From Alphaproteobacteria bacterium (lineage in GTDB: Bacteria > Pseudomonadota > Alphaproteobacteria > CAAHEQ01 > UBA3637): 64,000 nucleotides of DNA. How positions within the stretch are numbered: position 1 is the first letter of the stretch; each line of letters starts with the position of its first letter. The stretch spans positions 40,272 through 104,271 of the forward strand of contig JAZLCE010000013.1 of assembly GCA_045614025.1 (NCBI GenBank), in the 5' to 3' direction. Positions 56,811 to 63,086 of the stretch are shown here, one piece after another. The position numbers and the translations under genes are program-made. Below the pieces are notes generated by a model. It was not told the origin of the DNA. It saw only the letters and a program-made list of their open reading frames with translations, and did no database searches.

Positions 56811-56856
56811 AGAATATATAGATACTAATCAATAAAACATATGCATGGGGGGCCTA

Positions 56857-57804
56857 ATGTTTCGTCTGAATTTTTCAAAATTAGGTTTATTTTTAATTTC
56901 TTTTTGTTCTTGCCTATCCTTTCAGCAAGAAGGTTTTGCGCATTCTGTTACTTACACAAATGTTAACTATAAAGGAAACATGCAGGCAACTGTTGATCAC
57001 ATCTCAACTGAAGGAAGCATAAATGGTCTTATGCAACTTCAAAATTCTCTTAATGGACTTCCAAATTATTTTAACCAATCAGCTATTGGGCAATTTGCTA
57101 ATAAAGCAGCTGGCTTTATTGATAATGCTGAAAGCACTATTATGGGAACAGCTGATGCTGCTATTGGGTCAGCCACAACTATTGCAGGTGCAGCAATAGA
57201 TAAAGGAACCAGTGCTGTATCTGGTGCTATTGATAGCGCTACAGGAACTGTTGGCAATTGGGTTGATCAAGGGGCTGATTATGTTGGCGATATGTTTTCA
57301 TCCGAAGATGGTGGTGAAAAAGCTGGAAAAGGTTTCGTAGCTCAAAACAAAAGCGGATCTAATGTTGTTGATAAAATTAATGACTTAAACCCACTTGAAC
57401 GTTTAACAACAAGGGAAAAAGATAAAAAAATTTGCAATAATTTAAAAACAGTTGATGGGGTTAAAACTTGTTTTTATATTGATAATGAGCAAGAGCCTGG
57501 TATTATGGAAGTTGGCGATATTCATCAACATGTTACGCAAGCGAAATTTAATGGAATTTCAAATTTATATGCCGATTCTGCCGCCATTGTTAATGCGACT
57601 GCAGAATTTGCTAAGGTTGAAGAAGATATAAACCAAGAAGAGCCAACAACTGTTTCTGAAACATTAACAAAACGCGCTGAATCGGATTTAATATTTAATG
57701 TTATTGGCAGTGCTTATTTAGGGCTAGACTTATCAACGCTTGAATTAAATTCTTTAAGCATATATTCAACAATTAATTCTGTTAAAACGGATGGAGGCTT
57801 CTGA
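56857..57804 (+). CDS. secreted hypothetical protein P1 (Gly/Ala 11-residue periodic segment)
   Basis: The ATG at 56857 follows GGGGGG; the ORF-track ATG at 56845 is an alternative start. Signal peptide 'MFRLNFSKLGLFLISFCSCLSFQQEGFA|H'. Ends in '..KTDGGF'. No family recognised. Confidence 0.65.
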   Translation: MFRLNFSKLGLFLISFCSCLSFQQEGFAHSVTYTNVNYKGNMQATVDHISTEGSINGLMQLQNSLNGLPNYFNQSAIGQFANKAAGFIDNAESTIMGTADAAIGSATTIAGAAIDKGTSAVSGAIDSATGTVGNWVDQGADYVGDMFSSEDGGEKAGKGFVAQNKSGSNVVDKINDLNPLERLTTREKDKKICNNLKTVDGVKTCFYIDNEQEPGIMEVGDIHQHVTQAKFNGISNLYADSAAIVNATAEFAKVEEDINQEEPTTVSETLTKRAESDLIFNVIGSAYLGLDLSTLELNSLSIYSTINSVKTDGGF

Positions 57805-58577
57805 TGAAAAAAATAACCCTTATTCTTCTTTTTGCGCTCTATTCTTTAACTCTTCAAAATGCCTTTGCTGGCATTCCAATTACTGACTCTAAGGTATATA
57901 CCGAAAGTCAAACACAGCAACAACAAGCTGATGAAGATGTGCGAGATAGAAGATCAGATACTCAATATGAAACCTCAGTAAAAAACAGAATGATTGGCGG
58001 TATTAATGATTTCACGAATAGCACTCTTGAATTTATTAATCCACAAACCACAACTGATGGTGTATCTGGCTCTCTTTCACCTGAAGGATCAAGCTCATCT
58101 GAAACAATTCCCGAAGGTGTTAACGGCAGTGATTTTTTTAGAGAAACGCTTTTACCCCCCACCAATCAAGATGGGAAAGATAGAACTGAAGAAGCAGGCA
58201 TTGCAAACACTGCAAAATCAAAGGGAAAAAGAGAACGTGCTTTGGTTGAAGTTGCCACTTTTGGATATGCTTTAGCGGCAATAAATAAGGAACAAGCTAG
58301 CCGTAATTTAGGTGGAAAAACAAACATTGATACCCAAGTTCAAAATCAAACAAATAGCTCAGAAAATTATAGCTCTAGTGTTTCAAATAATACCAGTGTT
58401 AAAATGAGCAGTGCTCAAATTTATAATGCCATTGTTTTAACAGCCGCAACCAATAATATGCTCACAGCCATCAGCTCTGCAGATTATGTTACAAACACAA
58501 ATGTTTCTTTCAAAGAAGTTGTTGCTGGGATGGCCATACAAGCGGCTGGCAGTATGCTGGGTTCATTTCTTAAATAG
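57804..58577 (+). CDS. secreted hypothetical protein P2 (possible VirB5/TrbJ-like)
   Basis: 257 aa with a GGAGG SD and an ATGA overlap with P1. Signal peptide '..LQNAFA|GIPITDSKVY'. Helical Q/N/S-rich body. Confidence 0.65.
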   Translation: MKKITLILLFALYSLTLQNAFAGIPITDSKVYTESQTQQQQADEDVRDRRSDTQYETSVKNRMIGGINDFTNSTLEFINPQTTTDGVSGSLSPEGSSSSETIPEGVNGSDFFRETLLPPTNQDGKDRTEEAGIANTAKSKGKRERALVEVATFGYALAAINKEQASRNLGGKTNIDTQVQNQTNSSENYSSSVSNNTSVKMSSAQIYNAIVLTAATNNMLTAISSADYVTNTNVSFKEVVAGMAIQAAGSMLGSFLK

Positions 58578-58586
58578 GAGGATAAC

Positions 58587-60861: not shown

Positions 60862-60863
60862 TA

Positions 60864-62408
60864 ATGAAACATTTTCTATTATTTGCATTAACGGGTATTT
60901 CATTTTTTTCATTTATCAGTTTAACTCAAGCAACCGCTCCGGTTGAAAATGAATCTCAATCAGTGATTGAAACAGATGATTACACAACTGAAATTATCTA
61001 TCTTGAGCAACTTCATGCTATGCAACTTAAACTTAAAAGATTAAAAGATAAATATAAGGAAGAAGAACAAGAAAAACTGCGCGTTGATTTGGTTAACCAA
61101 AAATATAATGCGATGGAAGAATGCAATATTAATTTGCTGTCAGACGTTTATGAAGACCCAAAAGCTGCTTGGCAAAATATCACTCAAGCTTATGATGAAC
61201 AAGAATTAAAATTAACCGTAGATATTTTAAACAGTGTTCCTAAAAAAACAAGCACAGGAGAAGATGCTCAAGCAGAACTTTTTGCTAACTGGTATTTGGG
61301 CAGGGAAATTTTAACAGATGTTTATGCAAATCCATCAAAATATGGTCAAGTAAAAGAAGGTAAATCTTTCGAATTATGGGAAGATCAAAAATATGCTTAT
61401 CAAGAAGAAGTTAATTCTTTTTTAATGAACATAAATAAAATTTTAGGACGAACAGGCCGAATTTCAGGAATTAGTGCTGAAAATGATTTTGAAAAAAATG
61501 AATTGGCATATCAATCATTTTTATCCACACTGCCCCCTGATCAGATTCAAAGATTATCAGCAAGTCAAAAAAACTTCCCCAAACCACCAAAAGCTTTACC
61601 TCCAGCTCATGAAATTATGTGGTTTAATGATGATCCTGCAAAAACAAAATCCGTTTTTCCTGAATGGCCAAAACCTTGGAAAGAATTTATTCAAAGTGGA
61701 TTTAATACATATAACCCTAATGGAGAAATGTCAAAAACATTTTTGCCAAAAACACTTGTTTTAAATGAAGAAGCAAGACATAAAGATATTCTTGAACAAA
61801 ACAATCGGTTAAACGTTTATCAAGCCATCAAAAAAGAAAAAACAAGTTCTGAAAATGTTTTAAACCTCATAACAAATAAAAAAGAAACAACCATAAACGA
61901 GTTAAATCAACGTTTAAAAAATCTTGGAATCACAAACGAAATTAAAAGTGATAATGTTGATTCTATTATGGCTTTAGAAGAAGAATTATTAACTCTTAAA
62001 AATAAAAACATTAAAATTGTTCGTGACAAAATCACAAGAACACATTCAGAAGTTGTTGATACAAAAAACAAAACTGAATCATTTAAACTTTATTTAAAAA
62101 TGTCTTATGTTGAACAGTTAAATGCTTTAAATAAAATCCCAAAAGACACTGAAGAATATAGACAACTTAAGCAAATCATCTATTCATCTCAAGCTTATCA
62201 AGATTTTAATTATATTAATGCTCTTGAAAAAGATATAAATGGAGATGTTAATTTTACAGTGGTTAATGCTCAAGAAATTGATCATCTTTTAAAACAAAAA
62301 AAAGCAGAAATTGCTCTTTATGAGGAACTTGAAAAAAAGAATAACATGGATATCAAAAAACATTATAATAAAAAAATTAGCAAAAGCTGTTTAAATGGAG
62401 GTCTTTAA
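60864..62408 (+). CDS. secreted hypothetical protein P6 (coiled-coil arms, Pro/Trp-rich centre)
   Basis: 514 aa with a GGAGGA SD. Signal peptide 'MKHFLLFALTGISFFSFISLTQA|T'. The stop codon abuts the GTG start of the virB8-like gene with no spacer. Confidence 0.65.
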   Translation: MKHFLLFALTGISFFSFISLTQATAPVENESQSVIETDDYTTEIIYLEQLHAMQLKLKRLKDKYKEEEQEKLRVDLVNQKYNAMEECNINLLSDVYEDPKAAWQNITQAYDEQELKLTVDILNSVPKKTSTGEDAQAELFANWYLGREILTDVYANPSKYGQVKEGKSFELWEDQKYAYQEEVNSFLMNINKILGRTGRISGISAENDFEKNELAYQSFLSTLPPDQIQRLSASQKNFPKPPKALPPAHEIMWFNDDPAKTKSVFPEWPKPWKEFIQSGFNTYNPNGEMSKTFLPKTLVLNEEARHKDILEQNNRLNVYQAIKKEKTSSENVLNLITNKKETTINELNQRLKNLGITNEIKSDNVDSIMALEEELLTLKNKNIKIVRDKITRTHSEVVDTKNKTESFKLYLKMSYVEQLNALNKIPKDTEEYRQLKQIIYSSQAYQDFNYINALEKDINGDVNFTVVNAQEIDHLLKQKKAEIALYEELEKKNNMDIKKHYNKKISKSCLNGGL

Positions 62409-63086
62409 GTGATTTCTTATTTTATTAAAGATCAAAAAAAACGTGGAAAAGTTGCCATTTATTTAGCTAAATTTTGGATGACTTTAGCCTCTATTTCCAT
62501 TGCTATCAACTTATTTATTGTTTTAACTTTGGTTCAAATGGCACCAAAACTAAAGGTTGTTGCTCAAATTTTGCCCTCCCCTATGCATACATTAGATCAT
62601 ATTCAAATTGATACATTACCAGCAAAAAGATTAATGGATTCAAAATCACATAGCAATCGCGCCAATCGCGAATTATTAGATGAAATGTTAATCAGATATT
62701 ATATTGATAGAAGAATTTCATATTTTGCTGATAAAGATGAAATGACTGCTAGATGGGGTGGTGCTGGTGAAATTAGACGATTATCTTCCCCGGCTGTATA
62801 TGCTCAATTTTCTAAAAACATTCAAGAAAAAATTAAACAAATAGCAGCAGGAAAAGAAACCCAAAGCGTTGAAATTAACAATATTTCAAAACTGGGAAAT
62901 ACATATACGGTTGAATTTGATGTTTTTCATTATAACCCATATGATCCAATTGTTAAACCACTGGCACAACAACGTGTAGCAACTCTTACAATCGCACATT
63001 ATCCAAATAGACATATTTATTCTCAAAATTTTTCAAATCCTTTTGGCTTTTACATCCAAAAATATGATGAGGCCGTTAAAAAATAA
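62409..63086 (+). CDS. virB8: VirB8-family type IV secretion protein, divergent paralog
   Basis: 225 aa with a GTG start 8 nt after GGAGG. It has a short cytoplasmic N-terminus, one TM ('MTLASISIAINLFIVLTLV'), then 'MAPKLKVV' and 'EMLIRYYIDRRISY', with C-terminal 'NPFGFYIQKY' matching the VirB8 NPxGxxVxxY signature. Confidence 0.7.
   Translation: MISYFIKDQKKRGKVAIYLAKFWMTLASISIAINLFIVLTLVQMAPKLKVVAQILPSPMHTLDHIQIDTLPAKRLMDSKSHSNRANRELLDEMLIRYYIDRRISYFADKDEMTARWGGAGEIRRLSSPAVYAQFSKNIQEKIKQIAAGKETQSVEINNISKLGNTYTVEFDVFHYNPYDPIVKPLAQQRVATLTIAHYPNRHIYSQNFSNPFGFYIQKYDEAVKK

Follow-up and report, generated by a model that had tools for sequence, protein, structure and literature searches.

Six exported protein families joined to virB8 in an alphaproteobacterial type IV secretion locus: candidate subunits for the VirB5 slot

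Within a 64,000-nt stretch of an Alphaproteobacteria bacterium contig (JAZLCE010000013.1, positions 40,272 to 104,271; further in the text this whole stretch is referred to as the window), six consecutive genes, p1 to p6, lead directly into the virB8 end of an islet of type IV secretion system (T4SS) genes. The reading that we prefer, with a probability of about one half, is that the products of these genes are lineage-specific, Sec-exported, mainly α-helical T4SS subunits in the VirB5 (or VirB5/VirB6/VirB7) slot, functional analogues and perhaps remote homologues of VirB5. It is favored because of the linkage of the genes to the T4SS, the slot taken in a distantly related operon, the mature N-termini of p2 and p4, the size and helicity of the proteins, the vacant VirB5 role at the locus, the precedent of the F-plasmid protein TraH, and the pattern of dN/dS (the ratio of nonsynonymous to synonymous substitution rates). 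T4SSs of the rvh type are described as having no VirB5, the subunit that sits on top of the stalk, where it nucleates the pilus and makes contact with the target cell. The locus supplies candidates for this contact, namely exported helical proteins whose genes are joined to virB8 and which occupy the VirB5 slot in the distant relative.

The window DNA is chromosomal and low-GC (about 30–35%). The genes of the cluster are as follows (ORF, open reading frame; SD, Shine–Dalgarno site; aa, amino acids; TM, transmembrane):

folD, 55948–56802: the plus-strand gene cluster begins after this gene
p1 (family F1), 56857–57804, plus strand: 315 aa, predicted to be Sec-exported; ORF with SD
p2 (F2), 57804–58577, plus strand: 257 aa, predicted to be Sec-exported; ORF with SD
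p3 (F3), 58587–59354, plus strand: 255 aa, predicted to be Sec-exported; ORF
p4 (F4), 59366–60082, plus strand: 238 aa, predicted to be Sec-exported; ORF with SD
p5 (F5), 60079–60861, plus strand: 260 aa, predicted to be Sec-exported; ATGA overlap with p4
p6 (F6), 60864–62408, plus strand: 514 aa, predicted to be Sec-exported; elongated all-helical model
VirB8a, 62409–63086, plus strand: 225 aa, GTG start; Pfam VirB8, E = 1.9e-9; one N-terminal TM segment
VirB7-like lipoprotein, 63175–63354, plus strand: 59 aa, lipobox LAAAC; between the two VirB8 genes
VirB8b, 63373–64000, plus strand: reaches the window end; Pfam VirB8, E = 4.7e-7 for the part in the window

In agreement with the first-pass annotation of this DNA, six plus-strand ORFs of 315, 257, 255, 238, 260 and 514 aa were re-derived at these coordinates, and their orthologues are conserved in length. 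An alternative in-frame ATG at 56845 would extend p1 to 319 aa; the start was placed at 56857, because the orthologues begin with MFR or MFH. A GGAGG-type SD does precede each gene, as had been claimed, but the spacing of 5–8 nt given for all of them does not hold for p6, whose SD lies 10 nt before the ATG. Similarly, the gaps of 9, 11, 2 and 0 nt and the ATGA at 60079 were found again, whereas the ATGA read at 57804 is a 1-nt overlap of p1 and p2 (TGATG). At the last junction the p6 stop codon abuts the GTG with 0 nt between them, and the virB8a SD sits inside the p6 end. The GTG-started gene at 62409 had been called virB8-like, and the Pfam match listed above confirms it; its orthologues have ATG at the position of this GTG. 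Full-length VirB8b, as seen in the related locus L001, has 232 aa (Pfam VirB8, 6e-14). The VirB7 label of the 59-aa gene is putative, given by position and lipoprotein nature only. Scans for consensus promoters and terminators were uninformative, with results not above the shuffled expectation, and exact-sequence look-ups with the VirB8a and p6 of the window returned no record. A C-terminal GG motif shared by p1, p4 and p6 was rejected as a protein feature, being the translated GGAGG SD of the next gene.

The six ORFs are real genes under purifying selection, since they have length-conserved orthologues in at least 11 lineages and a low dN/dS. Computed between the window and the orthologues in its two nearest relatives (L001 and L008), this ratio is 0.10–0.37 for p1–p5, with p1 at about 0.25–0.27, and 0.095 for p6. 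The values for comparison genes are 0.09 for VirB8a, 0.045 for FolD and 0.017 for SurA.

All six proteins begin with a Sec-type signal peptide as originally described, with a basic n-region, a hydrophobic core (h-region) and a c-region ending in a small-x-small cleavage site. The signal peptides were judged by reading the sequences and by a Kyte–Doolittle hydropathy scan; the scan found no further 19-residue hydrophobic window in any of the six. The predicted cleavage sites are GFA|H, AFA|G, VHA|G, AFG|Q, VSA|Y and TQA|T for p1 to p6, respectively, and the leaders are kept in the orthologues. Judged by sequence, the proteins fit the class of Sec-exported soluble periplasmic or extracellular proteins, having a signal peptide, no lipobox and no further TM segment. 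Lipoprotein status was considered for p1, p4 and p5 and rejected for want of a lipobox.

No named family had been recognized for any of the six at first pass, and Pfam and NCBIfam likewise gave no match. Applied to 16 remote orthologues, the two databases produced sub-threshold noise only, and searches of PDB sequences with the p2, p3 and p6 profiles produced nothing. Homology to a known function outside T4SSs was thus found neither among Pfam, NCBIfam and PDB sequences nor by a Foldseek search with p6. Paralogy among the six proteins was rejected as well, as blastp and hhalign align their signal peptides only. The locus defines at least six undescribed protein families.

The relatives found in the genome collection are metagenome-assembled genomes (MAGs), one of them labelled yak rectum. 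In word-indexed searches, the matches of p2 and p3 are limited to one narrow clade, at 50% identity or more, and those of p6 extend down to 26% identity. In 11 of 11 related lineages, five to seven signal-peptide genes stand directly upstream of virB8a-virB7-virB8b-virB9-virB10. As far as the contigs reach, the order in these lineages is lptFG-lptD, surA, folD, the five to seven signal-peptide genes and virB8a, followed in the same relatives by a gene for a 58–59-aa lipoprotein, virB8b, virB9 with a C-terminal SPOR domain and a giant virB10. The 58–62-aa VirB7-like gene is kept in all lineages whose contigs reach its position. Iterative searches among the loci detected F4, F5 and F6 in all related lineages examined, a far more distant locus, L041, being set apart, and F3 in all of them except L010 and L029. 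F1 and F2 are present only in the nearer lineages, and in the remote ones other signal-peptide proteins take positions 1–3. None of F1–F5 was detected in L041. Judging from these searches, the six families are confined to an uncultured low-GC gut alphaproteobacterial clade with a VirB10 of the size of CagY.

The question of whether the cluster always co-occurs with virB8, virB9 and virB10 had been raised from the start; it is linked to T4SS genes in every related contig found, and searches of the p6 family revealed no homologue outside T4SS contexts. Hence the initial proposal, that the six proteins are periplasmic, surface or pilus-associated accessory components or substrates of this lineage's T4SS, stands as regards the lack of a known family and the constant linkage to the T4SS.

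The distant locus L041 (1–25568, 43% GC) was reached through P0207, a p6-family protein of 1855 aa that is encoded there. Its genes make up a nearly complete operon and encode, in order, a 96-aa two-TM protein with a weak match to VirB3, VirB4, signal-peptide proteins of 791, 262 and 629 aa, a p6-like protein, VirB8, a 62-aa lipoprotein, VirB8, VirB9, a 1286-aa β-flower/RHS protein and VirB10. Neither surA or folD nor lptD lies near the p6-family gene, and no polytopic VirB6 is encoded between virB4 and virB8. This context ties the p6 family to the T4SS, not to surA or folD. Moreover, as the family lies between virB4 and virB8, it occupies the canonical slot of VirB5, VirB6 and VirB7. Given this slot, the islet of the window appears to be the distal half of a virB operon that has been split, rather than a module with an addition at its front. 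The mature chain encoded by the first L041 gene after virB4 starts with QWPTFDVAAIKQ; hhalign aligns it to the first 17 residues of VirB5, without significance.

The same locus bears on the reading that the six genes encode unrelated envelope proteins, which share a neighborhood with lptFG-lptD, surA and folD, so that their adjacency to virB8 is functionally meaningless. In the 11 nearer lineages, genes of outer-membrane biogenesis do flank the cluster wherever the contig reaches them, and synteny within these lineages cannot separate the two neighborhoods. In L041, however, the p6 family resides in a virB3-virB4...virB8 operon that contains no surA, lptD or folD. Together with the zero-nt junction of p6 and virB8a, the position of the virB8a SD and the restriction of the homologues found to T4SS contexts, this makes a chance neighborhood very improbable.

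No recognizable VirB5 is encoded at the locus, and p2–p5 are of VirB5 size (238–260 aa) and carry signal peptides. A reference set of 14 annotated plasmid VirB5/TraC proteins was collected, and 13 of them supplied the six residues at the start of the mature chain for a position-specific scoring matrix (PSSM). The mature N-terminus of the reference proteins is sharply conserved: [GQ]-[IVLM]-[PVI]-V-x-[DN]. The best match to the PSSM in the whole of p2 is its predicted mature N-terminus (GIPITD, residue 23, 12.8 bits), and so it is in p4 (QCPVTD, residue 26, 14.1 bits). Members of F1 and F7 in other lineages also match at the mature N-terminus (GVPVIY and GIVVQD); the mature chain of some p1 orthologues begins with GVPVIY or SVPVTY. 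Over six independent lineages, four of the five matches scoring at least 10 bits fall exactly at a predicted mature N-terminus (GIPITD, QCPVTD, GVPVIY, GIVVQD). As background, the remaining 46 ORFs of the window were scored over 16,689 positions; two matches reached 10 bits or more, and both lie away from a mature N-terminus. The VirB5-type N-termini predicted for p2 and p4 are far commoner than expected by chance.

Two published systems serve as background here. In R388, a VirB5 pentamer is placed on a VirB6 pentamer, and the N-terminal part of VirB5 projects as that of a pore-former does (PMC9259494). Further, TraH of the F plasmid was recently assigned the function of VirB5, and it is unrecognizable as such by sequence or fold (bioRxiv 10.64898/2026.07.31.741991).

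Several observations weigh against assigning a VirB5 role to the six proteins. The N-terminal signature is absent from p3, p5 and p6. There is no above-threshold match to VirB5 (PF07996) or TrbJ of Pfam or to NCBIfam models, and in Pfam the six window proteins have no such match even at E ≤ 1; among the 16 remote orthologues, a single one, the p5 orthologue L011_g6, matches PF07996 weakly (E = 0.016, 16.1 bits versus the cut-off of 24.7). When the leaders were retained, hhalign reached up to 58% (p2); homology to VirB5 on this ground was rejected, as the alignment consisted of the leader and the first residues. After removal of the leaders, the probabilities against the 14-sequence VirB5 profile were all at most 2.4%. 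The N-terminal half of p2 is polar and probably disordered, unlike helix α1 of VirB5, and the model of p6 has no Foldseek match to TraC, CagL or TrwJ. Finally, neither the window nor the retrieved flanks revealed this genome's VirB6, VirB2, VirB4 or VirD4. Membership of the six proteins in the VirB5 family is not shown by these sequence comparisons.

The most conserved of the six proteins is p6. It has two invariant cysteines (C87 and C509) and the motifs PPALPPAxEI, FPxWPxPWK and CLNGG. An exhaustive profile search (E ≤ 1e-3) assigned to its family 160 representatives at the 50% identity level, including proteins of 1000–1855 aa that carry the p6 N-terminal domain; in L041_g6 the conserved p6 domain is internal (residues 554–789). 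All named members of the family are hypothetical proteins of "Alphaproteobacteria bacterium" MAGs, and Pfam returned nothing for eight long remote homologues. The confident AlphaFold model of p6, built on a 28-sequence alignment (pLDDT, the predicted local distance difference test score, 84.3; pTM, the predicted template modelling score, 0.75), is elongated and entirely helical and is predicted to open with a long helical hairpin. A Foldseek comparison of such a model with the PDB had been suggested by the first-pass annotation; it retrieved generic long-helix proteins only (best E 0.39, TM-score below 0.2).

The other five proteins differ in composition. p1 contains about five tandem 11-residue repeats rich in Gly, Ala, Ser, Thr and Asp (residues ~86–150, window positions 57100–57300), which produce a lag-11 autocorrelation peak; they are reminiscent of the 11-mer amphipathic lipid-binding repeats. 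In p2, the N-terminal half is polar and of low complexity, and the C-terminal half is conserved and helical. The AlphaFold model of p3 (11-sequence alignment) has a pLDDT of 42, too low for its Foldseek matches to carry any meaning; therefore only the secondary structure was used. The predicted helices of p3, one long at the N-terminus and two long at the C-terminus, are compatible with the VirB5 fold, a three-helix bundle with a globular appendage, but come from this low-confidence model. p5 has a Cys-rich, fast-evolving mature N-terminus (PCxPCxxC) and a well conserved C-terminal part of 160 aa. In L003 (9110–9996) and L007 (2278–3194), p5 is represented by two ORFs, each with its own signal peptide, the one on the second ORF having been acquired. 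Hence p5 consists of two modules, which can function apart from each other, each exported by itself.

The main rival of the VirB5-slot reading, the other rivals being weaker, sees in the six proteins a multi-subunit substrate (a toxin or adhesin complex), exported via Sec, assembled in the periplasm and carried across the outer membrane by the T4SS in the manner of pertussis toxin (PT), whose genes ptxA–E lie upstream of ptl. The Ptl system, which lacks VirB5, secretes a toxin of five subunits that depends on Sec and is encoded upstream of the system, and PT has been proposed to mimic VirB5 (PMC12857230). The window offers the same combination of Sec leaders in all six proteins, a position immediately upstream of T4SS genes and no recognizable VirB5. 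The variable number of genes, the turnover of families at positions 1–3 among the lineages and the relatively high dN/dS of p1–p5 would also suit substrates, as would the absence of VirD4 beside VirB11, although VirD4 may be encoded elsewhere, as in the rvh "archipelago". However, Pfam and NCBIfam revealed no enzymatic, ADP-ribosyltransferase or AB5-type domain, and the predicted structures are helical rather than of the OB-fold. F4–F6, and F3 except in L010 and L029, are retained alongside the T4SS genes even in lineages with as little as 26% identity. The L041 genes are part of the operon itself, following virB4 and preceding virB8, and do not stand in front of it. We therefore regard a secreted complex as unlikely.

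The composition of the rest of the islet bears on a further explanation. VirB9 (CagX domain) has about 580–600 aa in L001 (13297–15102) and in the orthologous loci and ends in a SPOR peptidoglycan-binding domain; we know of no SPOR domain on other VirB9 proteins. The VirB10 of the clade, with its 2190–2540 aa, has a TM segment at the N-terminus, about ten repeats of the β-flower (PF21785/PF21784) and DUF3659 types, and a TrbI domain at the C-terminus. It is encoded in L001 (from 15158 to the end), L004, L010, L011, L012, L027, L028 and L029, downstream of the point corresponding to the window end. It is similar to CagY in size, but its repeats are of other types. A scan with the C-terminus of VirB10 yielded three further metagenome contigs (L030, L031, L036), where a 329-aa VirB11 is encoded after virB10; in none of the three is VirB11 followed by VirD4, housekeeping genes being found there instead. 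Of the ten largest ORFs in the rest of the window, none was recognized as a further T4SS gene.

In expanded T4SS cores, accessory subunits are exemplified by Cag3, CagM and CagT in Helicobacter and by DotC, DotD, DotH and DotK in Legionella. By analogy, the six proteins, which are predicted to be periplasmic, could be peripheral or supporting parts of the core that the giant CagY-like VirB10 organizes in the outer membrane or periplasm, rather than form a tip or stalk. The size and β-flower repeats of VirB10 and the SPOR domain of VirB9 in the relatives suggest an enlarged envelope complex in need of such parts. On the other hand, Foldseek gave p6 no match among the Cag, Dot/Icm, R388 and F complexes whose structures are in the PDB, the VirB5-type N-termini of p2 and p4 are left unexplained, and, in our impression, an elongated helical bundle would be more at home in a filament, tip or stalk than in a ring. 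To a role in the core we give a small chance.

Under the VirB5-slot reading, the six genes would be translated together with virB8a from one tightly coupled message. From its sequence, each protein is predicted to cross the inner membrane via Sec and to have its leader removed by signal peptidase I. In p2 and p4, the predicted cleavage exposes the VirB5-type N-terminus [GQ]-[IC]-P-[IV]-T-D. Once in the periplasm, the proteins may be built onto the channel or stalk, with VirB6 as a putative site of assembly, and be displayed through the outer-membrane complex of VirB7, VirB9 with its SPOR domain and the giant repeat-rich VirB10, so that they would reach the surface. There they could make contact with the target cell as a stalk, tip or adhesin module. 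The slow-evolving, elongated helical bundle of p6 would be the conserved core of this module, and p1–p5, which evolve 2–4 times faster than p6, would be its exposed, target-facing parts, for which faster evolution is expected.

A bolder form of this scheme has a chance that is smaller still than that of the core role. In this form, the single homopentameric VirB5 has been replaced by about five VirB5-derived proteins (p1–p5), which can no longer be aligned, and by p6, together composing a hetero-oligomeric stalk or tip. If true, it would be the first heteromeric T4SS tip, and it would mean that rvh-type systems regarded as "VirB5-less" can hide their VirB5 function in unrecognizable proteins, of which an N-terminal hexapeptide is the only mark.

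Several other genes of the window and of the relatives were noted. A single plus-strand ORF of 1090 aa (51488–54760) fuses the LptF/LptG permease domain with LptD; near residue 370 it contains a stretch that resembles a signal peptide, MKNSFKLLLIASLCVFSTTANSQ. This fusion is kept at 1080–1091 aa in all related lineages whose contigs include the gene. Three minus-strand genes are of types typical of host-associated bacteria: a 522-aa MORN-repeat protein (4698–6269), a 923-aa HEAT-repeat protein (18186–20960) and a 1275-aa autotransporter with Chlamydia PMP repeats (33213–37043). In L031, the minus-strand gene at 7095–8090, near the T4SS islet of this related lineage, has a strong match to Mito_fiss_Elm1 (E = 2.7e-80).

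The system of this clade is a member of none of the rvh, Cag, Trw and ptx-ptl systems, and it shares features with each of them. The rvh systems are defined by duplicated VirB8, VirB9 and VirB4, a multicopy VirB6 and no VirB5 (PMC2653234, PMC11077975). In the Rickettsia rvh islet, virB9a takes the place where the six genes sit here (PMC2653234), and thus the first-pass statement that a virB9 paralog lies ahead of rvhB8a-rvhB7-rvhB8b in Rickettsiales is borne out. The clade does have two VirB8 genes on either side of one for a small VirB7 lipoprotein, with those for VirB9, VirB10 and VirB11 after them, and the gene order virB8a-virB7-virB8b-virB9-virB10-virB11 and the lack of a canonical virB5 are those of rvh islet C. 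The differences are a VirB10 that is 4–5 times longer, a single VirB9 (one CagX-domain gene seen per locus), six genes in place of rvhB9a, and no VirD4 after VirB11. Hence, when the locus is described as an extension of an rvh-like system, as was done at first, the order from VirB8 to VirB11 supports the description, whereas the addition at the front does not agree with the slot in L041, and the second VirB9 and the VirD4 after VirB11 are not there. Compared with the PDB by phmmer (E ≤ 0.01), VirB8a and VirB8b gave no match, and therefore closeness to the structurally characterized VirB8 proteins, including RvhB8 of Rickettsia, is not demonstrable.

The Bordetella ptx-ptl locus is similar in that five or six Sec-exported proteins are encoded directly upstream of VirB5-less T4SS genes and are probably co-transcribed with them; it differs in the ADP-ribosyltransferase and B-oligomer domains, which have no counterpart among the helical proteins described here, and in the placement of the L041 genes after virB4 inside the operon. 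Bartonella Trw is likewise a host-interaction T4SS with tandem fast-evolving genes of the tip or pilus type (trwJ for VirB5, trwL for VirB2), but the Trw copies are obvious paralogs, whereas hhalign detects no paralogy here and the cluster contains no VirB2-like genes. Helicobacter Cag combines a giant repeat VirB10 (CagY) with several lineage-specific exported proteins, of which CagL, a very divergent VirB5, is pilus-associated together with CagI and CagH. The comparisons of sequence and structure revealed no resemblance to Cag proteins, and the VirB8 duplication and the gene order are rvh-like rather than Cag-like.

As for the minor pilins VirB5, TraC and TrwJ themselves (PF07996), the difference is that similarity beyond the first 6–17 mature residues is not significant, and that six mutually unrelated families stand in place of one gene, p6 being twice the size of VirB5 and having no fold match. 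What is common to them is the Sec signal peptide, a length of about 220–260 aa (p2–p5), helicity, the virB4–virB8 slot in L041 and the mature N-terminal signature [GQ]-h-P-V-x-D of p2 and p4. The comparison with F-plasmid TraH has differences as well: p6 has no match to Pfam TraH, the p6 domain of L041_g6 is internal rather than N-terminal, and the interaction with VirB6 is putative. At the same time, TraH (about 460 aa, near the size of p6) also has a signal peptide, is helical, and has a VirB5 nature hidden from sequence and fold searches; the helical hairpin with which the p6 model opens resembles the reported N-terminal helix-loop-helix of TraH and TrwJ. If the assignment of the six proteins is confirmed, it would extend the TraH finding, with the VirB5 function persisting beyond the reach of homology searches.

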